Below, piece after piece: positions 1 to 31,660 of a DNA stretch of 40,173 nucleotides (within the stretch, counting starts at the first letter, position 1; each line of letters opens with the position of its first letter). Location of the stretch: sequence record SRR22947725_471; one strand, 5' to 3'. The position numbers and the translations under genes were made by a program. Below the pieces are notes generated by a model, which saw only the letters and a program-made list of their open reading frames with translations, did no database searches and was not told the origin of the DNA.

Positions 1-642
1 AGTATAAATACCTGGATTGTATGCATTTCCAGAAACTAAAACATTTATATCCCTTAATCTATCTAGAGTTATGAATGCTTTAGCGCCAATGTATGTAGAA
101 TCAACTTTTGATTTTATCAATAGGCTGGCATCTGACAAAGAAAGACCTGCAAGAGTTATAGGGCCAATATCAGATAAGTTTATTGATCCATCTCTTTTGA
201 TTTGATATGTTTCCTTTTCGTCTTTTTGACCTATTATTTGAATCTCTAAAATGTCCCCATGATCCAAAATATAGTCAGAGCTAAGATTTGGTTCATTTAT
301 TGGCATGAAAGTTGATTGATAGGTTGAAAAAAAATCGCTGCCGAATAAACGAAGATCATTTGTATTTAAATCAAAACCATCATCTTTAAGCCTATCCTCA
401 AGATATTTTAAGTCATCTTCTAGACGTTTCTTTAGATCAGCTAATTGCTTTTTTTCAAGTTTTGTTTGAGATTCAATGCTTCTATAGATAGGATCTTCAA
501 GTGCAGCATTATTATTGGTTTTTTTTGCTATGTCTTCTTGTATATCTTCAGGTAGACTGTTCAGGAATGTTTGATCTAATTCCTGAGCATTAATTGATAA
601 AAATGACAATAGAATAGATGTTAGTAATGTATATTTTTTCAT
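1..642 (-). CDS. SLBB-domain polysaccharide export protein (Wza/KpsD-like), N-terminal part; runs off the window start
   Basis: Not in the ORF track; translated by hand from ATG at 642: MKKYTLLTSILLSFLSINAQELDQTFL...LFGSDFF...FMPINEPNLSSDYILDHGDILEIQIIG...IKRDGSINLSDIGPITLAGLSL...INVLVSGNAYNPGIYT. Shows a signal peptide, a Poly_export motif and the start of an SLBB domain. The frame is open to base 1. Confidence 0.85.
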   Translation of the reverse strand, partial: MKKYTLLTSILLSFLSINAQELDQTFLNSLPEDIQEDIAKKTNNNAALEDPIYRSIESQTKLEKKQLADLKKRLEDDLKYLEDRLKDDGFDLNTNDLRLFGSDFFSTYQSTFMPINEPNLSSDYILDHGDILEIQIIGQKDEKETYQIKRDGSINLSDIGPITLAGLSLSDASLLIKSKVDSTYIGAKAFITLDRLRDINVLVSGNAYNPGIYT

Positions 643-691: not shown

Positions 692-2602
692 TTAAATATT
701 TAATCCTGGAATTGATATAGACTCGGTTTTAAGAACATGATCAATTAATTCAGAGATAACTTTATCAACTTCTGAATCCCTTATAGTTTCAATTTTAGAC
801 TGAAAAATAAACCTAAAACCAATCTTAATTTCTCTATTTTTTTCGTTGTTATAATAATCAAAAATATAAACATCTTTAAGTATGTCATGTTTTTGTTTTA
901 ACAAATAATTTTGAAGAGTTTCTAGTTTTGAAGGATCAGTTAAAGCAAATGATATATCTCTAGATGAAGTTGGGTATTCTGAAATTGGGGCATACTGCTT
1001 AAAATCAAAATTTGTTCTTTCAATTTTAGCTTTCTGATAATCGATATTAAAAGAATCATCTATTTCAAATTCGGCATAACTTATATGATTTTTTAGTTTC
1101 GTATCCAATGATGACCTAGATATATTGGTTATATTAATATTCAAATCTGATATGCAAGAATTTAAAATATTTTTAACATAGTTATCTGTTATTTTTTTTG
1201 AGAAGTCTCTGTAGTTTTTACCCAGCCTTCCACTTGCAATTATTCCAATGAACCTCTTTCCTTCTTTCGATTTATTGGTATATACATTAGAAATTTCAAA
1301 AAGTTTTACCGAGTCTTGTTGCCTTCTTTCGTTGTATAGAAGATTATTTATTAAAGATTGTTTTAAGTCTATTCTTAAAATATTTTTATTGCTATCCAAA
1401 GGATTATCAATCTTAATTGACTGATCAGTCGCAAAAGAACAAAAGGGGTTATTTATTACTTCATAAAAACCATTGTCAATTAATAGTTTTTTTAGTTTAT
1501 TTTCGTTATTTTCATTTACTTCTTTTTTATTTAACGAGAGCCCAAAATTTTTATTAGCTATGTTGTCATATCCTATAGATCTAGCAATCTCCTCAGATAA
1601 ATCGTTGATAGACCTGACATCATTCCTGTATGAAGGTACCAAAACTTCTCTATCTTTTATTACAAAACCAAGCTTTGATAAATAACCTTTATGCTCTTTA
1701 TCTGGTGAATTAATACCAAGAATTTTGTTAATTTTAGTTATATTAAATGGTATTTTTATTTGATTAAAATCGCCATAAGTATCTTTAAAAATTTTTACCT
1801 CTTTTATAGCTGTATTTTCTTCAACTAATTGTAAAAATCTTCTTAAAACATAGTTGTGGCAATTTGGATCTGTACTTCTTTCAAATTTATGTGCAGCTTC
1901 TGAGGAAATATCGTATTTTACTGATTTACCAATGATAGCTTCTGGATTAAAGTGAGCGCACTCCACAATAACTGTTTTTGTTTTCTTGTCACAACCTGTT
2001 TTTATACCTCCAATAATGCCTGCAAGATTAATAATATGATTATCAGCATTTCTAAATACCAGATTTCTTCCAGATAGTTTAATATTTTTATCAACTAAAG
2101 TTTCTAAATCATGATTACCTTCTACATATTCTAGGATAAGCTTATCGTCAAGCTTGGTATGATCATAGCAATGAGTAGGTTGACCTGTCTCATATGAAAT
2201 ATAGTTAGATATATCAGTGAAAAAATTTATTTTCTTGTTACCTAGTTCCTCAAAATAACTATTTAAGGTTTCATTATATAATGAGGGGATATCATCTATA
2301 ACAATTTTTAAAAATGATATTTCTTTACAATCATTTCGAGCATTGTTTACAAAGTTTAACTGAAAAGGATCTATTTCTTGATTATAAGTTTCTTGAATAG
2401 TATTAACGTCATAAAACAATCTTAAATCTCTTAATAGGCCATTAACTGATAAGCAATCACCTCTATTTGGAGTAAACTCTATATCAAAGATCATATTATC
2501 AATTTCATGCTCATGACCAAGTTGAAATAATTTTTCAGACACCTCCTCAATACCTGGTATTTGTTTGATATGTTTTACCAAATGTGAGTAGGCTATTTTC
2601 AT
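692..2602 (-). CDS. pheT: Phenylalanyl-tRNA synthetase beta subunit (shortened, lacks B2 OB-fold)
   Basis: Motifs TPNRGDCLS, ETGQPTHCYD (B3/4), VPSYRNDV..DLSEEIAR..GYDNI (B5) and a C-terminal FDX-ACB (YPTSSRDISF). ATGA overlap with pheS. Confidence 0.95.
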   Translation of the reverse strand: MKIAYSHLVKHIKQIPGIEEVSEKLFQLGHEHEIDNMIFDIEFTPNRGDCLSVNGLLRDLRLFYDVNTIQETYNQEIDPFQLNFVNNARNDCKEISFLKIVIDDIPSLYNETLNSYFEELGNKKINFFTDISNYISYETGQPTHCYDHTKLDDKLILEYVEGNHDLETLVDKNIKLSGRNLVFRNADNHIINLAGIIGGIKTGCDKKTKTVIVECAHFNPEAIIGKSVKYDISSEAAHKFERSTDPNCHNYVLRRFLQLVEENTAIKEVKIFKDTYGDFNQIKIPFNITKINKILGINSPDKEHKGYLSKLGFVIKDREVLVPSYRNDVRSINDLSEEIARSIGYDNIANKNFGLSLNKKEVNENNENKLKKLLIDNGFYEVINNPFCSFATDQSIKIDNPLDSNKNILRIDLKQSLINNLLYNERRQQDSVKLFEISNVYTNKSKEGKRFIGIIASGRLGKNYRDFSKKITDNYVKNILNSCISDLNINITNISRSSLDTKLKNHISYAEFEIDDSFNIDYQKAKIERTNFDFKQYAPISEYPTSSRDISFALTDPSKLETLQNYLLKQKHDILKDVYIFDYYNNEKNREIKIGFRFIFQSKIETIRDSEVDKVISELIDHVLKTESISIPGLNI

Positions 2603-3324
2603 TTAAACTGGCTAAGAAAATCTAGATTAGATTTATAAAAATCTCTTATATCTGTCACTCCATGTTTTAGCATAGCTACTCTTTCTATTCCTAATCCAAA
2701 TGCTAAGCCACTATACTTATTAGAATCTATATTGCAATTTTCTAAAACAACAGGGTTTACCAATCCACAGCCAAGTATTTCAAGCCAGCTACCTTGTGGA
2801 GAAAGGATATCAACCTCCGCCGATGGTTCTGTAAAGGGGAAATAGGAGGGCCTAAATCTTAATTCAACATCATTACCAAAAAGTGAATATATAACCTTAT
2901 AAATTAAATCTTTGAGTTGGGCGAAACTAACTTCTTTATCTACATAAATACCTTCAACTTGATGAAACATAGGTAAATGAGTAGCATCATCATCTTTTCT
3001 AAAAACTTTTCCACCTGAAATAAATGCTAATGGAGGAGTTTTTTTAAGCATTCCTCTTATCTGGACAGGCGAGGTGTGTGTTCTTAAAAGATTTTGTTTA
3101 TTTTCAACATAAAAAGTATCATGCATCTGACGTGCAGGGTGTGATTTCTTAATGTTTAGCATGTCGAAATTGAACTCTTCTGTCTCAATCTCAGGACCTT
3201 CAACAATTTCAAAACCATATGAAACTAAAAGATTCATAATAGAATCTTTCATGTGGTTTATTGGATGGAGGGATCCTATATCCTCAATTAACTTAGGTGG
3301 TGAAATTCCTTTAGATGCTGACAT
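2599..3324 (-). CDS. pheS: Phenylalanyl-tRNA synthetase alpha subunit (catalytic core only, no N-terminal coiled coil); start ATG 3324 or TTG 3330
   Basis: Motifs HPARQMHDTFY, LLRTHTSPVQIR, DATHLPMFHQVEG, FRPSYFPFTEPS and GLAFGLGIER. Confidence 0.96.
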   Translation of the reverse strand: MSASKGISPPKLIEDIGSLHPINHMKDSIMNLLVSYGFEIVEGPEIETEEFNFDMLNIKKSHPARQMHDTFYVENKQNLLRTHTSPVQIRGMLKKTPPLAFISGGKVFRKDDDATHLPMFHQVEGIYVDKEVSFAQLKDLIYKVIYSLFGNDVELRFRPSYFPFTEPSAEVDILSPQGSWLEILGCGLVNPVVLENCNIDSNKYSGLAFGLGIERVAMLKHGVTDIRDFYKSNLDFLSQFK

Positions 3325-3336
3325 CTTCAAGATGAA

Positions 3337-3684
3337 CTAGCTTGTTGCTGTTTTTACAATTTTCTCAAAAGTTGCATAATCAGAAATGGCTATATCAGAG
3401 AGAATTTTTCTATCTAAAGTAATATCTTTATTAGCCAAAGAATTAACAAGTACAGAATATGAAACACCTAATTCTCTTGCACCAGCATTGATTCTTGCTA
3501 TCCAAAGTGCCCTAAAAGCTCTTTTCTTGTTCTTTCTGTCTCTAAATGCATATTGTAAAGACTTAATATTTGATTGCTTTGCTGTTCTAAATAATCTACT
3601 TCTTGCACCATAATGACCTTTGGTAGCACTTAGTACTTTCTTATGTTTAGCTTTAGCTGTTACTGATTTGGTAGTTCTAGGCAT
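3337..3684 (-). CDS. rplT: 50S ribosomal protein L20
   Basis: Motifs KGHYGARSR, QYAFRDRKNKKR.FR.LWIARINA and LDRKILSDIA; position in the operon. Confidence 0.98.
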   Translation of the reverse strand: MPRTTKSVTAKAKHKKVLSATKGHYGARSRLFRTAKQSNIKSLQYAFRDRKNKKRAFRALWIARINAGARELGVSYSVLVNSLANKDITLDRKILSDIAISDYATFEKIVKTATS

Positions 3685-3687
3685 AAT

Positions 3688-3882
3688 TTATCTTCTTATT
3701 AATTTTGAAGCCATTTTAAGCACAACACCTGATAACTTATTTAGACCTCTGTTATGTCTTTTTCTTTTTGTAGACTGTTTAGTTAGGATATGATTTCTAT
3801 TAGCACTTCTACTCTTCACAGATGATCCAGTTTTCTTAAAGCGCTTAGCAGCTCCAGAATGTGTTTTAAGTTTATATCCCAT
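3688..3882 (-). CDS. rpmI: 50S ribosomal protein L35
   Basis: [16 protein letters not shown]...[12 protein letters not shown]; lies between infC and rplT. Confidence 0.98.
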
Positions 3883-3900: not shown

Positions 3901-4434
3901 TTATTTATTCTTCTTTAGAGGCGATAAAACCATCAGCAGTTGTCTTCCTTCCAAAGAAGGTTCTTGATCAACTTGCGAAATATTAGACAGCTCATCTCTT
4001 AGCCTGTTAAGTAGATTAAGACCCATATCGCTATTTAGTATTTCTCTTCCTCTAAATCGGACGCATATTTTAGTCTTATCTCCGTCAAGAATAAAGCTTT
4101 TAATCTTTTTTAATTTAATGTTGTAATCTCCAACATCAGTTGAGGGTCTAAATTTAATCTCTTTGGTAGTATTTCTTTTTACTTTTACTTTTGAAGAAGA
4201 GCTACTTTTCTTTTTATCAAAAAGATATTTACCATAATCAAGAAGTTTGCAAACAACAGGTTCGGCATTGGAAGGTGATACCTGAACTAAATCAAGTGAC
4301 AAGACTTTTGCTGACTCTAGAGCCTCTGTAAGACCAACTAGGCCTTTCTTTTCACCATTGGCGCCTATAAGCATCACTTCATTTGCCCTAATTTTTTCAT
4401 TAATAGGGATTATTTTTTTCTTTAAGGTAGCTAT
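3901..4434 (-). CDS. infC: Translation initiation factor IF-3, with a non-canonical ATA start
   Basis: IF3 motifs INEKIRA.EV.LI, LDLVQVSP..EPVVCKLLDYGKY, KEIKFRP and RFRGRE. The conserved INEKIR lies upstream of the track's start (4377). There is an in-frame ATA at 4434 with SD AGGTGA at 4439-4444, an in-frame TAA at 4462-4464, and no ATG/GTG/TTG in between. Confidence 0.95.
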   Translation of the reverse strand: MATLKKKIIPINEKIRANEVMLIGANGEKKGLVGLTEALESAKVLSLDLVQVSPSNAEPVVCKLLDYGKYLFDKKKSSSSSKVKVKRNTTKEIKFRPSTDVGDYNIKLKKIKSFILDGDKTKICVRFRGREILNSDMGLNLLNRLRDELSNISQVDQEPSLEGRQLLMVLSPLKKNK

Positions 4435-18560: not shown

Positions 18561-19615
18561 TAAGTTATGTCTCTGTTAATTAGATTTAAATAAATTCTGA
18601 GTCGAGAATCATAAGAATGATTTTCTCTTACTGTATTTTTGACTTTATCAATCATTAGCTTTCTTTCATCAATTGATTTTGCTGAATAATCTAATATTGC
18701 TTTATAAATATCAATTTCAGTGATCTTTTTAATTATGTAACCGGTTTCTAAAACAACCTCAGGTTGTGCTGTATTTGCTGAAACTAAACATGGTGTTCCA
18801 TAGGTCATAGCTTCAAGTACAGAGTTACCAAAGCCTTCATAGTAACTAGGTTGAATATATAAATCAGATGTCATATAAAGTTCATTCTTTCTTTTATTTG
18901 AAATATCTATCTCAATAATAATATTTTCAGATAAATTTAATTCTGATATTAGGTTTTGAAGAAATTTAATACCATCTCCTTGACCGCCAACAATATAAAA
19001 TCTTAAATCCTTCAAATAATTTTCTGGCAGCATTGAAATAGCTTTTAAAATTTTGTCTATTGATTTCCTTTTTATCTGATCCTTGGTGAACCAACAAACA
19101 GTCAAAAGCTGAATGAATTCATTTACAGTTTTATTTTTAGAAATCTTTATTAATTCTTTCTCGTTAAATATTGACGATGATTTAAGAACAAAAGGATTAC
19201 TAACTTTTTCATGAGAGGTAATTTGTCTAAATTGGCTTTCAGATATAAAAAGGGTTTTATCTGCTAATTTCCATGAAACTCTATTAAATAACCTAAAAAG
19301 ATAACTTTTCTTATAGAAATCAGGTGAACCACTTTCATCAAACATATGTACAGCTCCAGTGCCAATTACTTTTATTCTTAATATCTTTGATATTAAAATC
19401 ACTATAATTGAGGAATGCCACCACCAAAAATATACTAAATTTATTTTATTTCTTATTACTAATTTAAAAAAAGAAGAAAAAGAGTTAGCTATTAGCACTT
19501 TATCGTGCGCCTCATTCAACATTTTTAAATCAACTCTATAGTATTCCCACCTATCGAAATATTTTGGTTCGACGGGTACGAAATAAATAACAGTATCAAC
19601 TAAATTTTTTTTCAT
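18560..19615 (-). CDS. Glycosyltransferase family 4
   Basis: EX7E motif in YIQPSYYEGFGNSVLEAMTYGTP. Confidence 0.9.
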   Translation of the reverse strand: MKKNLVDTVIYFVPVEPKYFDRWEYYRVDLKMLNEAHDKVLIANSFSSFFKLVIRNKINLVYFWWWHSSIIVILISKILRIKVIGTGAVHMFDESGSPDFYKKSYLFRLFNRVSWKLADKTLFISESQFRQITSHEKVSNPFVLKSSSIFNEKELIKISKNKTVNEFIQLLTVCWFTKDQIKRKSIDKILKAISMLPENYLKDLRFYIVGGQGDGIKFLQNLISELNLSENIIIEIDISNKRKNELYMTSDLYIQPSYYEGFGNSVLEAMTYGTPCLVSANTAQPEVVLETGYIIKKITEIDIYKAILDYSAKSIDERKLMIDKVKNTVRENHSYDSRLRIYLNLINRDIT

Positions 19616-20690
19616 TTGATAAATAAATCATTAGTAATGCTAATGTTCCACTGTAATAATGTTGATAAATATTAACATTTAAATTCCAATCGATAAGTAT
19701 TAATGTTGATATAAAAATCATTGGTTTAATACCGTAATTTATATTCCTAAAAAAATTTTTAAATAATGAAAAATAAAAATAAAATATAATCGAAGAAACT
19801 ATAATTCCATTAGTTGTTAGAGAATGAAGAAAAAAATTATGTGAATGATTGTGTGTACCATTTCCAAAGAGAAGTATTTTGACATCAGTGAGGTACCCTA
19901 AGGATCTATTCCACGTCATGGATCTTGTGAATCCAGTACTATCAGTTAATGAGGTTACTCTATTAAAGCTATTTGTAAATATTTCAAGTAACTCCCCAGC
20001 AATGTATCCTAGGGAAACAAATATTAGAGCAAGCAAAATATAAAAATACTTATAGTAAAAGAGAAATGTTACTAATAAAAATAATATTACTGCCACCCTT
20101 CTCATTAATATAATTTCTATTAAAAATATTCCAAATAACAATAGAATGCTCCAAATGCTTTTTGATCCAAAATATTGAAGAGCTAAAAATAAACCCATTA
20201 CTAATACAAGTGGATAAGTTAAGTAAGCTTGATAGACTACAAAATCAAAAATATAAGGTCCAGCAGAAAATATGTCTCCTGAAAATAAAGAATAAATTAT
20301 AGTAGCTGAATGCGATGACACGAGCAATATCAACGATAGTAAAAAGCCTTTAATTACGTATATAAAATTTTGTTGAGATAAATTCTTTAAGCATGCATAA
20401 ATTAGAAAAAAGTGCATCTGTTGCAAAAATAAAAGAGCCCTATCTCCTCCTTCGAGCATACCAATAGTAATATATGCCCCACTAAATAATATTATTAGAA
20501 TTACTTTGATTCTTTTCAGGTAAAAAAAGGGGAACAATAGTAATATTAAAAAGTTAAAGTGTATCGGGACTCCCTCTACCTCATAATATGTAGTCGGCAT
20601 AGAAAAGCCTGAACCGCCAACAACTAAAAATAATGGCATCGCAACCAATGCACCTAAAATAAATAAATAATTCTTATTGAGTGATAGCAT
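19596..20690 (-). CDS. wzy: O-antigen polymerase / ligase-like membrane protein
   Basis: About 10 hydrophobic segments; loop R...W...LLFGNG...HSHNFFL...NG typical of Wzy_C/WaaL; flippase in the same cluster. Confidence 0.65.
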   Translation of the reverse strand: MLSLNKNYLFILGALVAMPLFLVVGGSGFSMPTTYYEVEGVPIHFNFLILLLFPFFYLKRIKVILIILFSGAYITIGMLEGGDRALLFLQQMHFFLIYACLKNLSQQNFIYVIKGFLLSLILLVSSHSATIIYSLFSGDIFSAGPYIFDFVVYQAYLTYPLVLVMGLFLALQYFGSKSIWSILLLFGIFLIEIILMRRVAVILFLLVTFLFYYKYFYILLALIFVSLGYIAGELLEIFTNSFNRVTSLTDSTGFTRSMTWNRSLGYLTDVKILLFGNGTHNHSHNFFLHSLTTNGIIVSSIIFYFYFSLFKNFFRNINYGIKPMIFISTLILIDWNLNVNIYQHYYSGTLALLMIYLSNEKKFS

Positions 20691-21846
20691 TTTCTGTGAA
20701 GAAGTTTTTAATTATCTCTTTCATATGATGCTTCTCATGTTCTGTTAGGCTCCAATGACATGCCACGTTAACACTTTCTAGAAATAAATTCTCTGAATGG
20801 GCTAACTTTTGATAAGAAGGTCCTGAAGGTGCGCTATCAAACCATGTTCCTACCTCAATATTATTTTGATTCATATGATTAATAAATTTATCTTTAATTT
20901 TTATAGATAGTGAGAAATGAACTCGAGGAGATGACATATTTTCACAAACTATGCTATTTACTTTGACTGAGAATGATCTTAGTAAATTAGCAATATCATT
21001 ATGGTTTTTGTTAGCAATTGCTAAATTCTTGCCAATACTTTTGTACGATCCTAGTAGTATTCTTAAAGTAAGAAGGCCTAATTTGCTATGGATCCTGCTA
21101 TATTTCGAAGATGAGTTTCGTGATGCTCTATGAAATTGAAAAAGTCTTAGAAATAACCATGCAAAAAATTTTAATTTGCTCCCTCTAGGTGAAATATACA
21201 AGTTTAGTATTAGTAGTATATTTCTGTGTATGTCTCTTACAATTCCAACCCTTTTTATAGATTTATAATATTGGTCAAAATTTGAAGATGCTGGAAGAAT
21301 TAAGAGTCCTGCCCAGCCTATAGTGAATGACTTAGAAACTTCAAAAGAAATTATTGTTGGATAAATAGCATCTATTTCATCTTTAAAGTCATTTGGGCCA
21401 TATGATAAAGATTTATCTAATAAAACTTTTACACCATCTTTAGAAATTTCTTCTAATTCTAAGTCAGTATGGGCTTTTCCTCCAAATGTGATTTGACTTA
21501 TTAAAAGTTTACATTCGTCGTGTAATTTAAAGTCAATCGCTTTAAAATTTGAATCACAGTCATAGAAAATTATTTTACATCCTAAATCAATTAGCACATC
21601 AGTAACAGCATCACATGTGTAGTACATTACTTGTACTACATCTCCTTCTCTAATACCGATATTTTTCATATAGTGAAATAATGCATTTCGTGCAGAATCA
21701 AATGGGTAAATGGTATTTGGTAGAGAGCAAATATCTTTGCTTTCATTGTTTTGAAATGAATTTACGTAGTTTTTAAAAGTATTGCCTCGCCACAATATAG
21801 AGATTCCTCCTCCCCATCTTGACGGATTTGAATATTTATCTAACAT
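20674..21846 (-). CDS. Divergent DegT/DnrJ-like PLP-dependent protein (likely start ATG 21846; track gives 21858)
   Basis: Motifs FDSARNALF, GDVVQV..YTC.AV, IFYD and SFEVSKSFTIG (Lys retained); C-terminal VNVACHWSL. Confidence 0.65.
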   Translation of the reverse strand: MLDKYSNPSRWGGGISILWRGNTFKNYVNSFQNNESKDICSLPNTIYPFDSARNALFHYMKNIGIREGDVVQVMYYTCDAVTDVLIDLGCKIIFYDCDSNFKAIDFKLHDECKLLISQITFGGKAHTDLELEEISKDGVKVLLDKSLSYGPNDFKDEIDAIYPTIISFEVSKSFTIGWAGLLILPASSNFDQYYKSIKRVGIVRDIHRNILLILNLYISPRGSKLKFFAWLFLRLFQFHRASRNSSSKYSRIHSKLGLLTLRILLGSYKSIGKNLAIANKNHNDIANLLRSFSVKVNSIVCENMSSPRVHFSLSIKIKDKFINHMNQNNIEVGTWFDSAPSGPSYQKLAHSENLFLESVNVACHWSLTEHEKHHMKEIIKNFFTENAITQ

Positions 21847-21847
21847 T

Positions 21848-22930
21848 TTATTTATCAAGTACAGTTGAGATAATTAACGATTGCTCATCCTCACTCAAGT
21901 CAGGGTAACTTGGAAGACAAATGGTTCTTGAGGAAATTGATTCAGAGACACGCAGATGCTCGATATTGGAATTCTGATAACAAATCATTTTATTAACCAA
22001 AGGAAATCCAGGCCTTACTTCTATATTATTTTTGCCGAGTCTGTTATTCATATTTTTAACTTCTGCTTCATCTTCAAGAAGAATTGTATTAATCCAATTT
22101 GAAGATTTCTCAAGGTTGCAATCTTGAAACAATACTTTTTTACTCAAAGTTGAGCGATATTTTTGTGCCAACTTTAATTTTAAATTTAAAATATGCTCAA
22201 TATCTTCAAGTTGAGCACAACCTATAGCAGCTTGAATATTCGTCATTCTGTAATTATAGCCAATTACATCATGTGTATATCCACCATCAGTCACCAGTCC
22301 TTGATTCTTTAGATGTGCAACTTTTTCAATTAAATCAACCCTATTAGAAAAAACTGCTCCACCCTCTCCGGTTGTGATAGTTTTATTTCCAAAAAAACTC
22401 AATGTTGCTATATCACCAAAAACACCAACGTGTTCATCTTGATAAAATGTTCCAAAACTTTCTGCACAATCTTCAATTAAAAATAGTTTATTTCCTTTTG
22501 CAATTTTAACTAATTGATTCATATCACATGGAGCGCCATAGATGTGAACACACATGATTGCTTTTGTTTTTTTTGATATTTTTTTTGATATTGAAGCACA
22601 AGAAATATTCCAATCATGCTTATTTATATCAACAAAAACTGGTACAGCTCCTACATATCTAATTGCATTTACAGAAGCAACATAGGTGAAAGATGGAACA
22701 ATTACTTCATCTCCTGGCCCAATATCAAGAGCTAACAAGGCTAAATGAAGAGCAACCGTTCCATTTGAACAGGTTGTAACTGCCTTTGAGCCAAGATATG
22801 AATTTAAATTATCTTCAAACTTTGAAACAAAGACACCACGAGATGATATCCAATTATCATCTAAACACTGATTTACGTACTTCTTTTGATTTCTCGCTAT
22901 ATATGGTTGATATATTGGAATTTTGTTCAT
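21848..22930 (-). CDS. DegT/DnrJ sugar aminotransferase, GDP-perosamine synthase-like
   Basis: Motifs WISSRG.FV, SNGTVALHLAL, IEDCAES, SFFGNKTITTGEGG and GYNYRMTNIQAAIG. Confidence 0.88.
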   Translation of the reverse strand: MNKIPIYQPYIARNQKKYVNQCLDDNWISSRGVFVSKFEDNLNSYLGSKAVTTCSNGTVALHLALLALDIGPGDEVIVPSFTYVASVNAIRYVGAVPVFVDINKHDWNISCASISKKISKKTKAIMCVHIYGAPCDMNQLVKIAKGNKLFLIEDCAESFGTFYQDEHVGVFGDIATLSFFGNKTITTGEGGAVFSNRVDLIEKVAHLKNQGLVTDGGYTHDVIGYNYRMTNIQAAIGCAQLEDIEHILNLKLKLAQKYRSTLSKKVLFQDCNLEKSSNWINTILLEDEAEVKNMNNRLGKNNIEVRPGFPLVNKMICYQNSNIEHLRVSESISSRTICLPSYPDLSEDEQSLIISTVLDK

Positions 22931-24570: not shown

Positions 24571-25920
24571 CTAAAAACTCAACATTATTTTTGACATTGC
24601 TTTATCTAAATTAACTTCAGCATCCCAGTACAAATATGGTTGTTGAGATAAATTCATCTCAGCATCTTCCATGGCCTTTTCTATATAAATAATTAAATCT
24701 TCATATGAGGTAGCTATTTTTAATTGGTCTCCAAGCATATTTTTTGGGAACATATCAGTATTTCTTTTTTTAAGAATTTTATAATCATCTATGAAATTTG
24801 CAATTAACGGGCATCTTGTTAAAAAATTTACATCTGTGCTGAGAGATGTTAAATACGACATTACAAAGATATCAATATCAGAAATTTTATCTATATGTGA
24901 TTTTAAATCTTCTTCAAAAGACAAAATTGAACCCTTTTTTAATTCTGTCATGCTCAATGAATGTGGTATGAGGTGAACATTTTTATAATCTTTAAAATAT
25001 TGTTCAGTTAATAAGAACTCAGCTTTATTCATGTAGGGACAATAATAAATTGTATTTTTTGGGAATTTAATTGCTATAGTTTTAACTGATTTTAATTCTG
25101 TTTGTTTTGGAAAGTAAAGAGATGCAACACCAGCATACATAATATTTTTATTTATGTTATTTTTTTTAATAGAAGTAGAAGGTTTTTTAAAATTTTCTAT
25201 ATTTCTATGCCATATGCTTCCTATTACTTCGATATTATCTTCAGAGATATTATGTAGATCTTTTGCAAGTTTCTTTTCGTATTCACTTTGAACTCCATAT
25301 ATGTTGTGATTGAGCAAAAGGAAGCCGGTACAGTGAATTTGATCTGATGTATATGGAATCATAACTGATTTCCATTTATTCTTCCTGCTGATAGTTGAGA
25401 GAAGCCTGTCTTGCGTTCCCCAATTAGCAGATTGAAAATAAGTTACATCTTTTAAATTATTCAAAAGATCAATTTCGTTAGATTTAAAATTGACAAGATA
25501 AAATACAAATTCTTCAAGTTTTAACCATAAAAACCTCTTTTGAAACAAAAATGATAATAATGTTAAAAAAAATCTAAAAATTGTTGGGAGTACTTCAAAA
25601 TATCCACTTCTGTTAAAATTAGAAAAAAGGTTGTTAAAGTAATAAGGCATTCCATGCTTTTCATGCTTTGCAAAATAAGCAGCCCTTCTTATAAGGTCTG
25701 AAACTTTTAGAAGCGTTCTCGCATAAAAAGATTCATTAATGTTTAAAAGAATGAACTCTGCGTCATGCAGGTCAAGGAAATCAATATCTTCTTCTGTAAA
25801 TTCAAATGGTGAAATAACTATTATATGCCCATATTTTTTTAATTCTTTTATAAAAGGAAATGATAGGGAATGTCTTATATTTCTTAAAAAAGGGACTGAA
25901 ATTATAATATTTCTTCGCAT
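24571..25920 (-). CDS. Hypothetical 449-aa protein, possibly a GT-B-fold transferase
   Basis: Long ORF coupled to its neighbours. Alternating alpha/beta pattern (IIISVPF, IEVIGS, IMYAG, IDIFVMSY) but no decisive motif. Confidence 0.5.
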   Translation of the reverse strand: MRRNIIISVPFLRNIRHSLSFPFIKELKKYGHIIVISPFEFTEEDIDFLDLHDAEFILLNINESFYARTLLKVSDLIRRAAYFAKHEKHGMPYYFNNLFSNFNRSGYFEVLPTIFRFFLTLLSFLFQKRFLWLKLEEFVFYLVNFKSNEIDLLNNLKDVTYFQSANWGTQDRLLSTISRKNKWKSVMIPYTSDQIHCTGFLLLNHNIYGVQSEYEKKLAKDLHNISEDNIEVIGSIWHRNIENFKKPSTSIKKNNINKNIMYAGVASLYFPKQTELKSVKTIAIKFPKNTIYYCPYMNKAEFLLTEQYFKDYKNVHLIPHSLSMTELKKGSILSFEEDLKSHIDKISDIDIFVMSYLTSLSTDVNFLTRCPLIANFIDDYKILKKRNTDMFPKNMLGDQLKIATSYEDLIIYIEKAMEDAEMNLSQQPYLYWDAEVNLDKAMSKIMLSF

Positions 25921-27098
25921 TAAACGCCTTTTCCAAAATAAATATATCCTTCTTTGGTAGTTTCTTTTATTGGATTTTGAATATATGTTGATTCAAATTT
26001 ATCAACAATCTTCTTTTCACTTTTGCTCAAAGATTCCTCTTTTATCTTATGTTTTGTATGCAAAGAACAAATATATTCGAGAGATTCATTTTTTATGCCA
26101 AGCCAATCACAAAAAATATCTTCATACTCATTCCATTTTCCAATATATGCTTTTTCAATAATAGCTGCTTCCTCTCTGGATAGTCTTTTGTGTCGTATTT
26201 CTCTACATAACTGATCAGTTACTTTGGAGTAACCATGCTTAAGGTATTTAAGTTTATTGTGTATATTTAAGTACACATAACAGTCAACATTTTCATAGAT
26301 ATCAAATGTGGAGCTTGATTTTAGAGTTTCAAAGCCATATTTTTCCACAACAAGCTCTGCCTGCTTTCTATAATCCCATCTAATGAAATTGTTTAGATAA
26401 ATACCTCTTATTTTTTTTTCATAAAGCATATCATCATTTGGATACTCATAATTTCCAAAAATACTTTCGTTTAAAATTGAGAAAGGATCATCTTCATTAA
26501 CTACTTCCTTTCCAAATAAGTCATGGTCTTTTCTATATCTTCTTGTCATTTCTACACCTTGATGATAGGAAAACATTCCTACTTGCTCTATGCCTTGATG
26601 AGCTCCCCAGACTATCAATGGAATATTGAATTTAGTTGCTGACTGAACTGCAAAAACAGTATTTCCAGCAAGAGCATGCCAATAAGGATTGCCATATCTT
26701 TCAAGTGAATATCTAGTAATATCCTGAACAATTTTGAGGTTAGAATTTTTAATAATTATATCTACACCAAAAACCTCACGAAGCTTAGCTAAGTTTCTAA
26801 TTGACAACATATTATTAAAATATTTATTGTAATGAACTACCAGTGGTTTAAGCTTGAGAATATTAATTACATGATGTAGTACAAAAAAAGAGTCAGATGA
26901 TGAGGTGACAGGAACCACACAATCATAATATTCACCTTGCCTATAATTATTAACTAATTCTTCGAGTTTCTCATATTTTTTTGACCAATCAATTGAATCT
27001 TTTTCTTCATGGATGAGACACCCTGAACAAATGCCATCGGAATTAAAAGTAATACCTAAAGGGTGTTCGTCATTATATAAACATCTCTTGCATTCCAT
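25920..27098 (-). CDS. N-acetyl sugar amidotransferase paralog 2 (WbuX/WbpG/PseA family), degenerate PP-loop
   Basis: Motifs CxxC...CxxC, YDCVVPVTSSSDS, PLIVWG, GIYLNNFIRWD and KYLKHGYSKVTD...EIRH..LSREEA. Confidence 0.85.
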   Translation of the reverse strand: MECKRCLYNDEHPLGITFNSDGICSGCLIHEEKDSIDWSKKYEKLEELVNNYRQGEYYDCVVPVTSSSDSFFVLHHVINILKLKPLVVHYNKYFNNMLSIRNLAKLREVFGVDIIIKNSNLKIVQDITRYSLERYGNPYWHALAGNTVFAVQSATKFNIPLIVWGAHQGIEQVGMFSYHQGVEMTRRYRKDHDLFGKEVVNEDDPFSILNESIFGNYEYPNDDMLYEKKIRGIYLNNFIRWDYRKQAELVVEKYGFETLKSSSTFDIYENVDCYVYLNIHNKLKYLKHGYSKVTDQLCREIRHKRLSREEAAIIEKAYIGKWNEYEDIFCDWLGIKNESLEYICSLHTKHKIKEESLSKSEKKIVDKFESTYIQNPIKETTKEGYIYFGKGV

Positions 27099-27858: not shown

Positions 27859-28470
27859 TTATGATGCCAAGGCATGATTAAGCAATACGTTTCCAGCTAT
27901 TTGACTTTTTTCAGGATGGAATTGAAAACCGATAAGATTATTTTTTTCAAAAACTGATGGTATTGTTTCAAACTCATTTATATGTGATGAACCAGTAATA
28001 AAGTTAGGATTAAAATCATAAAGTTTATATTTATGATTAAAGTAAAAATTATTTTTATCAAATTTTGCAAAAATACTATTTTGACTAAAATTTACAGAAT
28101 TCCAACCTATATGGGATTCAACAGATTTAAGCTTATCAGTATAACCCTCAAGGAGACTCAAACCCTTAGAGTCTGGCTTGGTCTCCATTGAATACTCAGA
28201 TAAGATTTGGAAACCCATACATATTCCAATTATTTTTCTCTCTAGCTGTATATGCTCATGTATAAATGAATTTTTATTACTAAATAATCTTTTTGATAAT
28301 GATGCAATGTTGCCAACCCCTGGGAATATAATGGCATCATATTTTATATTTTTAGAGATATCAGAAATCTCAAAGATAGAATAATATTTTTTATCAATGG
28401 CATTATAAAGTGATTTTATATTCCCACCAGCTATATTAATAATACCAACAGTTTTTTTTGTTCTAACCAT
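27859..28470 (-). CDS. hisH: HisH-like glutaminase paralog (WbuY/HisH2 type); start ATG 28470 or 28479
   Basis: Motifs GNIKS, IFPGVG, GICMGFQ (Cys), HIGWN and FQFHPEKS (His-Glu). Confidence 0.88.
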   Translation of the reverse strand: MVRTKKTVGIINIAGGNIKSLYNAIDKKYYSIFEISDISKNIKYDAIIFPGVGNIASLSKRLFSNKNSFIHEHIQLERKIIGICMGFQILSEYSMETKPDSKGLSLLEGYTDKLKSVESHIGWNSVNFSQNSIFAKFDKNNFYFNHKYKLYDFNPNFITGSSHINEFETIPSVFEKNNLIGFQFHPEKSQIAGNVLLNHALAS

Positions 28471-29605
28471 ACAAACCATGCCCTACCTTAAAATTTGGAG
28501 TATATTTTCCTTTTTCGCCTGTTGGAGTAAATAGCTGCTTATTTACATTTTGATCAATAACCTCCCAAAACTCTGCTTTTGTGATGCTTATATATTCGCA
28601 AAAGGAATCAATATACTTATCAGCGCATTTACCATCAAACTTTTCTACAAGCTTTATTGCCTCATCTCTTGTTATTGACCCGTTTCTAATTTGCTCGTTT
28701 ACATATTCCGTAGTTTTTCCAAAACCAAATTTATAATATTTAATCATTTGATTAAATATTACCCAATCTTCATCTAATGAAGAAACGCCAGATGCATCAC
28801 CAGTATCAATTGCTTTGCCCAGTCTCGGAGATAGGCCATAAGAAAGACTTGTTCTACCATTTGTAATAAAATTCCAGTCTCCAATAAACCATCCTAGATA
28901 GATAATATTTATATTCTTTGCTTCAAATTCTTTTTCTATTGGATATCTAAAGAAATATAAATCTTTTTCGGGTATACCCATTTCTTCCATCCATGATATA
29001 TCTCCACCCGCTAATGTATTTCCAGATTTCATATTATTTCCATCCCACCCATTTTTGCCAATCATGCCTTTGTCACCAATTTGCAAACCTGGATTCTCTC
29101 CCCATATAACTAAAGAGATATCATAATTTATAGCAATTATTGGAACTGCAGAAAAAAGAGCCATTTCTGTTGCTTTACCCCAATTAGAAAATCTAAAGAA
29201 GGATTCTTTTATTAACTTTTTCCATAAAATTGGTGATGGGCCTATTACTTCTAAGTCAAAGCCCAATCGAATCAAATTGGATAAATTGCTCGCACCTAAA
29301 TCAGTAACTTGGCTTGGTGGATATGACATACATACTAATAATGGATTTAACCCGAGATTATCTCTTATGTATAAGGCTTGTCTGGTACTATCTTTTCCAC
29401 CACTTACACCTACAATACAATCATATTGTGAGTTCTTATTATTTTTTTTTGCTTTATTTACAAGATCTTGCAAAATCTCATGCCTATCAGGCCAATAAAT
29501 CTCTTCTGTTGATTTATGATATTCGCATGCAGTACAAATTTCAGATGATTCCCAGCTATTACCAGGTCTTGTATTAGGTTCTAAACATTTTTTACAATAA
29601 ATCAT
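28463..29605 (-). CDS. N-acetyl sugar amidotransferase paralog 1 (WbuX/WbpG/PseA family)
   Basis: Motifs CKKC...TRPG...CTAC, YDCIVGVSGGKDS, IWGEN and KYYKFGFG...IRNG.ITRDEA. Confidence 0.92.
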   Translation of the reverse strand: MIYCKKCLEPNTRPGNSWESSEICTACEYHKSTEEIYWPDRHEILQDLVNKAKKNNKNSQYDCIVGVSGGKDSTRQALYIRDNLGLNPLLVCMSYPPSQVTDLGASNLSNLIRLGFDLEVIGPSPILWKKLIKESFFRFSNWGKATEMALFSAVPIIAINYDISLVIWGENPGLQIGDKGMIGKNGWDGNNMKSGNTLAGGDISWMEEMGIPEKDLYFFRYPIEKEFEAKNINIIYLGWFIGDWNFITNGRTSLSYGLSPRLGKAIDTGDASGVSSLDEDWVIFNQMIKYYKFGFGKTTEYVNEQIRNGSITRDEAIKLVEKFDGKCADKYIDSFCEYISITKAEFWEVIDQNVNKQLFTPTGEKGKYTPNFKVGHGLYG

Positions 29606-30792
29606 CTTAAAAATTCTCTAGAGTATATTGATGTCAATATAAAATAAGCCACATTAAATACAGCAATAGATAATATAAGGTTATAAAAACTTAAATTACT
29701 AAACGCTAAATATATAACTTGTATTATAAACGATACTACTAGTATTTTATTCATTGAATAAAAATCATTCTTAGAATTCTGAAAACCAATAAGGACTGCC
29801 GAAATACAATACAATGCTATAAATGGTAGCAGAAATATGAAATGTTCAATAATTGGAATGAATTTTTCTCCAAATAAAAAATATATTAGATCTTCGCTGA
29901 TTAGAGCAAGAATCAAAGTTACAAATATTTGAGCAACCACAAAATACACAATTATTGACTTAACTCTATTACTTTGATTTCCATTTGAAAATTCAGGAAG
30001 AATTATAGTATTCATTGCTGCTGGGACTTTTATCAGCAAAGATACTAATGCTTGAATTTGACCAAAATATGCTAAATCGGTAGCTGGAAGAAAGAAAATA
30101 CAATAAAACCTGCCTATTTGTTGTTGAATTGTTGTTAAAAACGAGTTTACATAAAATCTTGTTCCAGCTTTTAACAATTTAAAAAATTCATTCTTTTTAT
30201 ATAATATTTTTGAAAACTTGAAATTAAATAAAATAACTACAAAAATTAATGACCATGAGAAAAATTGACCTAAAATTGGAGCATATATTAGTCTATCTAA
30301 CAACTGAATCGAAACTAGAATTGTTATTAAATTTGTAAAACTTTGTGCTAATAGAAGTATGTTGTAAAAATTATATTGCTTGAGTGCTGTTAGATAATAA
30401 AGATAACTAGAACCAGAAATTGATAATATAAAAGAGGTGATTATAAAATCTAGCTCATATCTGATTTTGTAGTCAACTATCAAAGAGATATTATCTAAGA
30501 TTAGCTCTCTAAAAAAAACATATATTAGTAGCACCAAGAGTGAAGATATAGCTATTAAAATAATTTGAGATGATTTTAATATAGATGAATCACTAGAGGA
30601 GTACCTCACAACAAAAGGAATTTCAGATTTAAATCTAAATGTTGCATCCAGGATAAGAAACACAGTCTGGAGTGCAAACCATAGAGCAAGCTCAGTTAAA
30701 GAAAGATATCTTGCAAGTACAACTATAATTAAAAAATTAATTGCTGTTACTGATACATCTCTTGTTAATAAAAAAATTATCTTCTTTAACAT
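29602..30792 (-). CDS. wzx: Oligosaccharide flippase
   Basis: About 12 hydrophobic segments; ARYLS..E, ILPEFS and FLFGEKF patterns typical of Wzx/MATE-like flippases. Confidence 0.8.
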   Translation of the reverse strand: MLKKIIFLLTRDVSVTAINFLIIVVLARYLSLTELALWFALQTVFLILDATFRFKSEIPFVVRYSSSDSSILKSSQIILIAISSLLVLLIYVFFRELILDNISLIVDYKIRYELDFIITSFILSISGSSYLYYLTALKQYNFYNILLLAQSFTNLITILVSIQLLDRLIYAPILGQFFSWSLIFVVILFNFKFSKILYKKNEFFKLLKAGTRFYVNSFLTTIQQQIGRFYCIFFLPATDLAYFGQIQALVSLLIKVPAAMNTIILPEFSNGNQSNRVKSIIVYFVVAQIFVTLILALISEDLIYFLFGEKFIPIIEHFIFLLPFIALYCISAVLIGFQNSKNDFYSMNKILVVSFIIQVIYLAFSNLSFYNLILSIAVFNVAYFILTSIYSREFLR

Positions 30793-30793
30793 G

Positions 30794-31660
30794 TTAACTA
30801 ATAACCTTGTATATTTCTTCTGGCAATCTTGGCTTCCTTATTGAGGATGGAATACTTGTAAAAACATCAAAACCTGACTCTTTTGCTAAATATAAGAAAT
30901 AACTTTCAGCCCCAACTACTATTGATGATTTTAAAAGAGAGTTGATTGGCGAAATATTTAAATCGAAAACAACATCATTAATTTCATTTAATTCCTTATA
31001 AGTATCAGGGTCATCTTTAGGATGAGGTCTCACAATAATTTTTTTTAATTTATTATTTTTTTTATAGTAATTATTATAAAAATTAAAGAAAGCAATTTCC
31101 CAAGGAAGTTTTTCGCCCCATTTTTCTTTGATATTCTCCAAAATATATAAAACATGATTACGATTATTTGGAATATTATTTATAAAATACTTTTTAAATG
31201 TATCAACATAATAATTTTTACAAATATATATTTGATTAAATGGGAAAAGTTCTTCTATCGCAATTTTTAAAGCATGTTTGTCGCAAACAAAACAATAATC
31301 AGGATATATAATGGTTTTTTCAAACAGAAATCTTTCTTTAAAATTAACGAAGTGATCTAAGATAGAAATAGTCACAATGTTATATTTTTTTGCAATTTTT
31401 AAAATCTCTTTTTCAAAAGATGAGGATCCTGTTCCAAGAATAAGCAGATCTATTTTTTGTAACAAAATATCATGATTTTCAACAAAAATAATATTTTCTG
31501 AATCTAAAATATTTTTTGCAGGGCCATCAACATAGGATTTAAATTTAATTTTTTGAAAATTTTTAATTAATGAGTTTATTATATTTGCTCCGCCAGCATC
31601 ACAGCATGCAACACCAACAGATTTGGATTGATTTATTAATTCTTCAATAGAAATGCTCAT
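30794..31660 (-). CDS. Hypothetical protein, candidate nonulosonate or phosphotransferase-type GT-B enzyme
   Basis: N-terminal DAGGAN motif, LDHFVNF..RF and VRPHPKD ('HP' motif); lies immediately upstream of wzx. Confidence 0.5.
   Translation of the reverse strand: MSISIEELINQSKSVGVACCDAGGANIINSLIKNFQKIKFKSYVDGPAKNILDSENIIFVENHDILLQKIDLLILGTGSSSFEKEILKIAKKYNIVTISILDHFVNFKERFLFEKTIIYPDYCFVCDKHALKIAIEELFPFNQIYICKNYYVDTFKKYFINNIPNNRNHVLYILENIKEKWGEKLPWEIAFFNFYNNYYKKNNKLKKIIVRPHPKDDPDTYKELNEINDVVFDLNISPINSLLKSSIVVGAESYFLYLAKESGFDVFTSIPSSIRKPRLPEEIYKVIS

Follow-up and report, generated by a model that had tools for sequence, protein, structure and literature searches.

The window analyzed here, the whole 40,173-nt stretch of DNA from sequence record SRR22947725_471 (GC content ~30%), carries on its minus strand the gene order infC-rpmI-rplT-pheS-pheT, the canonical position for pheST, the genes of phenylalanyl-tRNA synthetase (PheRS). 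Both PheRS subunits are trimmed: the alpha subunit, PheS, is without its N-terminal coiled coil, and the beta subunit, PheT, is without its B2 OB-fold. This feature is real, conserved and under selection, and represents a variant form of a well-known enzyme. We put at about 80% the probability that the cell has no PheRS other than the one encoded here, presumably an (alpha-beta)2 enzyme of bacterial type, and that this enzyme works without coiled coil or B2. The features of the locus, with lengths in nucleotides (nt) or amino acids (aa), are these:

3901-4377, minus strand: infC (Pfam IF3_N and IF3_C)
3688-3882, minus strand: rpmI (Ribosomal_L35p)
3337-3684, minus strand: rplT (Ribosomal_L20; full L20)
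3325-3336, minus strand: rplT-pheS spacer of 12 nt, from the coordinates of the open reading frames (ORFs)
2599-3324, minus strand: pheS, PheRS alpha, 241 aa from the ATG at 3324 (PF01409, 320 bits; TIGR00468, 299.7 bits)
2599-3330, minus strand: longer pheS frame, 243 aa from an in-frame TTG at 3330
692-2602, minus strand: pheT, PheRS beta without the B2 OB-fold, 636 aa (ORF, Pfam domains; TIGR00472, 348.3 bits)
2501-2506, minus strand: pheT codons 33-34, the junction of the B2 loss inside B1, with ~119 residues gone (alignment gap after residue 33)
1817-2272, minus strand: PheT B3/4 editing domain, residues 111-262 (PF03483, 129.9 bits)
1568-1753, minus strand: PheT B5, residues 284-345 (PF03484, 54.5 bits)
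1124-1522, minus strand: PheT B6/7 catalytic-like module, residues 361-493 (PF17759, tRNA_synthFbeta, 66.8 bits)
728-982, minus strand: PheT B8 ferredoxin-fold anticodon-binding domain (FDX-ACB), residues 541-625 (PF03147, 61.1 bits)

PheS consists of a catalytic core and little else. In a Pfam scan its sole match is tRNA-synt_2d (PF01409; residues 18-242, 320.2 bits), and Phe_tRNA-synt_N (PF02912), the coiled-coil domain, is not matched. Against TIGR00468 it scores 299.7 bits, above the cut-off of 237.45, with a match that begins at profile position 68; the class II core, FPF loop and motifs 1-3 included, is thus present by both models, and the N-terminal arm of TIGR00468-type PheS is absent. 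Residues 9-11 line up with residue 97 of the solved alpha subunits of Acinetobacter baumannii (6P8T_C) and Escherichia coli (3PCO_A), and from there the alignment runs without gaps to the C-terminus, through the PSYFPFTEPS and GLGIER regions. When aligned with 15 other Gammaproteobacteria, numbered from a Serratia sequence that matches E. coli, the protein lacks residues 1-87; a passage in PMC8599791 places the coiled coil at residues 1-88. An earlier reading made from the sequence alone (hereafter the sequence-only reading) had described a PheS of 241-243 aa that reaches GSLHP within about 20 residues and has no room upstream for an arm, and the translation and coordinates bear it out: GSLHP occupies residues 19-23, and because rplT encodes a full L20 and ends 6 nt (TTG) or 12 nt (ATG) from the pheS start, there is no space for an N-terminal arm. 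The ATG at 3324 is the likely start, since the closest homologues in a metagenome search (8000 candidates scored, the best 120 listed) are all 241-244 aa long, at 84-95% identity.

PheT has been shortened in a different place. Its residues 1-33 line up with the N-terminus of other PheT proteins, and residue 33 pairs with residue 152 of the E. coli beta subunit (3PCO_B); the gap of 119 residues, 34-152 in enterobacterial numbering in the alignment with the 15 Gammaproteobacteria, corresponds to the B2 OB-fold. B2 belongs with the EMAPII/Trbp-like folds that Pfam models as tRNA_bind (PF01588), and PheT has no match to that family. B1 (PF18262) matches weakly at residues 27-64, with 16.3 bits against a cut-off of 26.8, and DIEFTPNRGDCLS, which the sequence-only reading had placed almost directly after B1, does begin at residue 40. 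TIGR00472 gives 348.3 bits, below its curated cut-off of 402.65, over profile positions 155-789 of 798. The sequence-only reading also mentioned a shortened stretch ahead of FDX-ACB. Small deletions of 4-5 residues do occur (440-444, 521-525 and 646-649), but they are scattered and minor, and no single shortened region exists. The coordinates, lengths and motif positions given in that reading are all correct. The same alignment contains no inserted segments in the short PheS or PheT.

The remaining domains are kept. The Pfam scan finds, in order, B3_4 (111-262), B5 (284-345), tRNA_synthFbeta (361-493) and FDX-ACB (541-625), the last three with 54.5, 66.8 and 61.1 bits, all above their cut-offs. 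Within the editing domain, PheT N133, H144, G198, E214, S234 and A236 align with E. coli beta N254, H265, G318, E334, T354 and A356, a correspondence counted by hand on the 3PCO_B alignment; of these we take H265, E334 and A356 to be E. coli editing-site positions, and G318, N254 and T354 are named as such in a passage of PMC8599791. B3/4 is therefore present together with its active-site residues. The link that had been drawn between B2 and editing is off: in PMC3275996, editing is assigned to B3/B4 and not to B2. Models for other kinds of PheRS are not reached: the monomeric mitochondrial-type TIGR00469 gives 128.8 bits against a cut-off of 258.35, and the window has two separate genes; the archaeal/eukaryotic-type NF003210 and TIGR00471 give 208.1 against 350 and 64.8 against 282.65. 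The alignments to solved structures show the two missing domains to be absent rather than diverged in place, and at 241 plus 636 aa there is no leftover sequence able to conceal them.

Compared with canonical (alpha-beta)2 enzymes (E. coli 3PCO, A. baumannii 6P8T, Thermus thermophilus 1PYS/2IY5, Mycobacterium tuberculosis 7K9M), then, the window has the same two genes in the same operon, an alpha core 51-58% identical to that of other Gammaproteobacteria, and the editing residues, B5, B6/7 and B8. It differs in lacking beta residues 34-152 as well as the alpha arm, in a PheT score under the TIGR00472 cut-off, and in having no leader before pheS.

Could these short genes be decaying pseudogenes, miscalled starts or artefacts of assembly? 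Two relatives (G465 and G489) do have a pheS interrupted by stop codons, and the low TIGR00472 score might be taken the same way. As far as sequence goes, however, the idea is refuted, and we give it practically no weight. One sample contains 35 genomes with frames of these lengths and another contains 37 (16 in common), and the best 120 metagenome proteins are all of this size; the end of rplT, 12 nt from the pheS start, counts against a miscalled start; and the retention of catalytic and editing residues counts against decay. Strong purifying selection counts against pseudogenes, too. In the least saturated pair of short-type genomes (dS ~0.33-0.36), the ratio of nonsynonymous to synonymous substitution rates, dN/dS, is 0.038 for pheS and 0.067 for pheT, compared with 0.086 and 0.097 in a full-length pair. 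The view of the sequence-only reading that the frames are intact, that the catalytic, B3/4, B5 and B8 parts persist, and that this is a streamlined, selected PheRS rather than a decaying one is upheld by the Pfam scores, the alignments and these ratios. The two genes do not evolve at the same pace: between the window and G407, its nearest relative in the sample described below, PheS is 88% identical (dN 0.079) and PheT 51% (dN 0.395), and within the short clade PheT evolves several-fold faster than PheS.

In one order the architecture is fixed across dozens of species. A sample of 401 gammaproteobacterial genomes (400 scored, 387 matched; G313, G146, G044 and G301, flagged as unpublished, contribute only to the tally of 401) yielded short PheS frames, among the 150 matches listed (246 further ones were unlisted), only in G401 and G045. 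The order to which G401 belongs, which from its genome size, GC content and habitat we take to be probably SAR86, comprises marine Gammaproteobacteria and was sampled with 121 genomes of 0.6-1.8 Mb; a pheS match was found in 102. PheS is of the short type in 40 of these, at 65-88% identity to the window (35 frames of 232-251 aa, two broken by stops and three fragments at contig ends), and full-length in the other 62, whose frames run to 324-352 aa, at 51-57% identity. The full-length-PheS lineages share with the window the operon, a near-identical tRNA-Phe and the same B2 deletion (34/45 to 152/153). They differ in a PheS of 323-333 aa with Phe_tRNA-synt_N and in a PheT of 661-682 aa (the short clade has 633-646 aa), and identity between the two sets is ~52% for PheS and 25-27% for PheT. 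Complete PheT frames in the order are without exception 633-699 aa long, compared with 764-810 aa in the 15 other Gammaproteobacteria, and the short PheS is found in a subset only. The losses therefore took place in two steps: first B2, no later than the base of the order, and then the coiled coil, once, in part of it.

Beyond the order the two losses fare differently. PheS frames were at least 327 aa in every one of 80 loci (47-58% identity) taken from named GTDB species representatives. PheT was located in 77 of these loci, six of them cut by contig ends, and in three loci, one from a Nitrospirae and two from Clostridia metagenome-assembled genomes (MAGs; L069, L077 and L079), it is 684-702 aa long and likewise has no space for B2. 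Unlike the window, these three have full-length PheS, in frames of 339-365 aa; one of the genomes also carries a free 109-aa tRNA_bind ORF. B2 loss is therefore recurrent in bacteria, and since the domain has been lost repeatedly, it would appear to be an accessory one. A few PheS proteins of 247-287 aa turned up among the best 150 cluster representatives. Most belong to 90% clusters that also contain proteins of 335-340 aa and so are truncated calls; two, P0168 and P0266, are singletons. Coiled-coil loss is thus the rare part of this architecture and B2 loss the recurrent part. We found no published description of a bacterial PheRS without the coiled coil, nor of PheRS in SAR86, in a search that covered articles and not supplementary tables of synthetase lengths.

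If the trimmed enzyme is to be the only PheRS, no other copy should exist, and here relatives have to stand in for the window. One could suppose that this genome has another PheRS, full-length or of a different kind, and that the short operon is a redundant or specialized second copy. The single-copy evidence does come from relatives and not from the window's own genome, a point that weighs against our reading. We nevertheless consider a second copy very improbable. Short-type genomes have one PheS match each (in the two apparent doubles a single gene is broken into pieces), and nearly all have one PheT match; pheST sits at its canonical position after rplT; and dN/dS values of 0.04-0.07 speak against redundancy.

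A second way out, proposed by the sequence-only reading, is a partner acting in trans: a Trbp111/CsaA-like OB fold, a coiled-coil protein, or a member of a new family that would restore contact with the tRNA elbow or 3' end. The T. thermophilus coiled coil is reportedly required in vitro, and many genomes of the order do carry a free tRNA_bind ORF of 110-120 aa. Free Trbp, moreover, enhances aminoacylation by several synthetases according to a section of PMC11286949. The genomes do not bear the proposal out, and we think it improbable, if less so than a second PheRS copy. PF02912 scores above cut-off in 63 of the 121 genomes, every time within pheS itself (once in a fragment at a contig edge), and the 40 short-type genomes are not among them; two sub-threshold hits (12.8 and 14.0 bits) fall in unrelated long frames. 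PF01588 has matches in 105 of the 121 genomes, in 98 of them as a single above-cut-off hit. A second such hit occurs in five (four with full-length pheS, and a duplicate in G507), and two others have an extra sub-threshold one. These matches lie away from pheT, either in small ORFs, mostly of ~110-127 aa with one of 165 aa and a 52-aa piece besides, or in frames of 650-699 aa.

Both kinds of frame belong to methionyl-tRNA synthetase (MetRS). In G415 the 118-aa ORF encodes the C-terminal domain of MetRS, with a TIGR00399 score of 129 bits (cut-off 116.65), and it comes directly after and overlaps the metG core ORF; in G407 the long frame is MetRS (NF001100, 793 bits). The free OB-fold ORF is therefore a split-off piece of MetRS, independent of the state of PheRS: it is also present in full-length-PheS genomes, and the window's nearest relatives have no free tRNA_bind gene at all, PF01588 being found there only in the fused MetRS frame of ~650 aa. 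Nor does a new ORF adjoin pheST, which has a 12-nt spacer upstream and a polysaccharide exporter gene next downstream, and neither PF02912 nor PF01588 is found among the 37 window ORFs scanned. A partner of an unrecognized family would escape two Pfam searches, and this, too, tells against our reading. MetRS itself is variable in these bacteria. In much of the order it is split into a metG core ORF and an overlapping ORF of ~110-120 aa (L268:1-829 in G415); it is fused, at ~650-680 aa, in the window's closest relatives and their full-length-PheS kin (L267:357-2312 in G407); and in G441, G497, G505 and G521 a fused MetRS coexists with a weaker free copy of the C-terminal domain.

We return to the trimmed PheRS as the cell's only one. 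From its single-copy status in relatives and the purifying selection on it we would predict (alpha-beta)2 assembly, charging of tRNA-Phe and editing of Tyr-tRNA-Phe. How might it hold its tRNA? In canonical complexes, according to parts of PMC8136816, each tRNA touches all four PheRS chains, and the alpha N-terminal domain contacts the D-loop region, G19 and U20. Sections of PMC9976931 name G34 as the strongest determinant, which in T. thermophilus contacts B8, and describe the monomeric mitochondrial enzyme as too small to reach nucleotide 20. The Trbp/EMAPII OB folds, of which B2 is one, grip the 3' end of tRNA and not the elbow (PMC11286949, in part).

In the short clade, then, tRNA-Phe would have two points of attachment, its GAA anticodon being read by B8 of the partner beta subunit and its acceptor end taken by the alpha catalytic core. 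The third contact, of the coiled coil with the D-loop and elbow (G19, U20), would have been given up, and B3/4 editing of Tyr-tRNA-Phe probably kept. Such two-point docking can be likened to that of monomeric mitochondrial PheRS (human FARS2, 3CMQ/3TUP), which also has neither coiled coil nor B2 and is built of a core and a ferredoxin-fold anticodon domain. The likeness is a mechanistic analogy only, and not membership of TIGR00469: the mitochondrial enzyme is a single chain with no editing domain, whereas the window encodes two subunits with a B3/4-B5-B6/7 body.

The tRNA gives no sign of having accommodated to the change. The window contains no tRNA or Rfam match within its 40,173 nt, and the query was the tRNA-Phe of G407 (L111:1501-1576). 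Full-length matches to it are 96-100% identical in genomes with a short PheS and 97-100% in most of those with a full-length one, and G466, which has a full-length PheS, has an identical copy; a few genomes fall to 89-95%, several of which have no pheS match. Of the loci read, 30 in all, 13 depart from it solely at position 60 (C60U) and the other 17 are identical. All the bacterial Phe determinants of Table 1 in PMC9976931 are present (A73, U20, U45, U59, A26:G44 and G34-A36), and the tRNA retains G18, G19, U20, U45, U59, A26, G44, A73 and the GAA anticodon. tRNA-Phe is thus unchanged despite the trimmed PheRS. The C60/U60 polymorphism (L138-L167; 17 C, 13 U) adjoins the U59 determinant, and both states occur with both types of PheS.

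Several considerations weigh against a trimmed enzyme that simply works as it stands. Aminoacylation without a helper is a prediction from conservation and from single copies in relatives. In T. thermophilus, deletion of the coiled coil reportedly abolishes aminoacylation in vitro (Lechler and Kreutzer, 1997); if the requirement is general, some compensation that sequence does not reveal must exist in the short clade. Two candidates for it were rejected. Compensating insertions are ruled out by the alignment with the 15 Gammaproteobacteria, which has none, and electrostatic compensation by the charge of PheT, which is no more basic in the short clade than in its relatives (net charge ~-16, whereas lineages of the order with a full-length PheS have +10 to +14). 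In other Gammaproteobacteria the net charge of the PheT core is ~-24.

The short operon also has a history. A PheS+PheT tree was made from 64 rows and 864 columns (those occupied in the window), by a quick search with posterior mean site frequencies (PMSF) under LG+C20+F+G4, with L203 omitted because its PheT is cut. The order is monophyletic in it (support 99), and all 21 short-type rows form one clade (SH-aLRT, the SH-like approximate likelihood ratio test, 100) on a stem of length 1.27. The clade is sister (support 99) to the full-length relatives G449, G521, G485, G497 and G429, and it splits into group a, which includes the window (genomes 1.0-1.3 Mb), and group b (0.6-1.1 Mb). The groups have the same small PheT deletions. 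The coiled coil was therefore lost once, by this tree, and the short pheST operon has a single origin. One stray row bears on the tree though not on the order: L005, a Pedobacter MAG by title, has a PheS and PheT that group with Acinetobacter (support 97) inside the Gammaproteobacteria, and its contig is probably a contaminant in its bin.

Other markers divide these genomes differently. The family of G407 (91 genomes sampled, 68 matched) has 40 short-type, 26 full-length and two weak matches, and includes the five full-length relatives and no group-b genome; the family of G415, a member of group b, has 30 genomes, 23 of them matched and all short-type. The rpo block (rplJ, rplL, rpoB and the first ~490 residues of rpoC; 2146 columns from 20 genomes chosen for long contigs) agrees with the families. 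Its topology is (b,(a, full-length relatives)), and under LG+F+G4 it rejects (a + b) with a log-likelihood difference (delta lnL) of 92.8 and a p-value in the approximately unbiased test (p-AU) of 2.6e-54; the site-heterogeneous PMSF tree supports (a + full-length relatives) at 100. PheS+PheT does the reverse and rejects (a + full-length relatives), with a delta lnL of 216 and a p-AU of 5e-36 (31 of the 64 rows, LG+F+G4). Mean identities run the same way: group a and the full-length relatives are 0.82 (0.818) identical in the rpo block, 0.52 in PheS and 0.25 in PheT, and groups a and b 0.67 (0.666), 0.70 and 0.43. Since rpoB and pheST lie on one contig in G407, G401, G409, G415, G411 and G429, binning errors cannot explain the conflict.

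Because the short operon has a single origin and yet is found in two families set apart by the rpo markers and by family assignment, the simplest and most likely history seems to be that pheST was replaced in place, once, by lateral transfer between the lineages at the stems of the two groups. Branch-length scaling does not give the direction of transfer, as PheST rates relative to rpo rates differ ~2- to 10-fold over the trees. Sliding-window identity reveals no sharp recombination breakpoint within PheS or PheT. A hint at most of the upstream border comes from rplT. In the first third of L20, group a is closer to the full-length relatives (0.82) than to group b (0.72); over the last 39 residues (window 3337-3453) the values are 0.53 and 0.54, and groups a and b have a longer L20 C-terminal tail in common. 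The C-terminal third of rplT may thus be where the exchanged segment begins, to judge from 39 residues.

There is an opposing account: the coiled coil was lost a single time, descent has been vertical throughout, and the conflict between markers is a long-branch artefact of a fast-evolving, small-genome family. Some of our own data lean that way. The three genes next to pheS do not reject (a + b): rplT, rpmI and infC give a p-AU of 0.55 (control tree of 52 rows, with G453, L246, L002 and L033 left out for missing or partial genes). Group b has long stems, 0.99 in that control tree and 0.66 in the rpo tree, and its fast evolution makes long-branch artefacts in species markers possible. The relatives, moreover, are species representatives, many of them incomplete. 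One pair is disquieting: G461 and G469 are 99.5% identical over rplJ-rplL-rpoB-rpoC-N (rpoB loci L249 and L247), and only 64% in PheS, 43% in PheT (pheST loci L180 and L179) and 73% in rplT-rpmI-infC. A chimeric assembly with a mis-binned contig may account for this, or a further exchange of a large segment.

Even so, strictly vertical descent strikes us as rather unlikely. It has to contend with the outright rejection of (a + b) by the rpo block and the full support for (a + full-length relatives) in the PMSF tree, with the match between family assignment and the rpo tree, and with rpo identities that place group b equidistant from group a (0.666) and the full-length relatives (0.667), those two being 0.818 identical to each other. 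Lateral replacement can be joined with the mechanism sketched above into one proposal, namely that this lineage dropped recognition of the elbow (nucleotides 19, 20 and 59), converged on mitochondrial-style two-point docking with the editing body kept, and passed the resulting minimal operon, fit enough to displace a full-length one, between two families of a bacterial group among the most abundant in the ocean. This we advance tentatively, as a whole that is somewhat more apt to fail in one of its parts than to hold in all of them.

What would it mean? The coiled coil is described as taking part in tRNA binding in every solved bacterial PheRS-tRNA complex, and dozens of free-living species, with tRNA-Phe unchanged, do without it. 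They offer natural variants for the role of the arm in affinity, in reading the identity elements U20 and U59, and in coupling the halves of the tetramer, with close relatives that have or lack the arm as controls. A trimmed PheRS in an abundant small-genome marine bacterium is a natural test of what a minimal enzyme requires, and a small PheRS that retains its editing domain could be useful for engineering. The lateral replacement, if true, would make a core translation enzyme swappable between families in streamlined marine genomes.

The layout of the operon is compact. pheS and pheT overlap by 4 nt (2599-2602), and the 12-nt spacer ahead of pheS can hold neither a leader peptide nor an attenuator or N-terminal extension. 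The pheST operon of E. coli has a leader-peptide attenuator; control of that type is therefore impossible here, and pheST is presumably transcribed by read-through from rplT. Contigs from four RNA libraries cover portions of pheS and pheT, and two span the rplT-pheS junction. These are weak evidence of expression, because DNA carry-over is possible and neither strand nor ends are given.

Around the translation operon, and on the same strand as pheST throughout, lies a surface-polysaccharide biosynthesis island of ~35 kb (window 1-642 and 4578-40173). It encodes Poly_export and Bac_transf proteins, epimerases, UDP-sugar dehydrogenases, DegT aminotransferases, glycosyltransferases and a heparinase II/III-like protein. 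Its ORFs without a Pfam match at E<=1e-5, whose count is given as eight, include 19596-20690, 20674-21858, 24571-25920, 25920-27098, 28463-29605, 29602-30792 and 30794-31660. Polysaccharide islands are often recombination hot spots, and this one may bear on the mobility of pheST.

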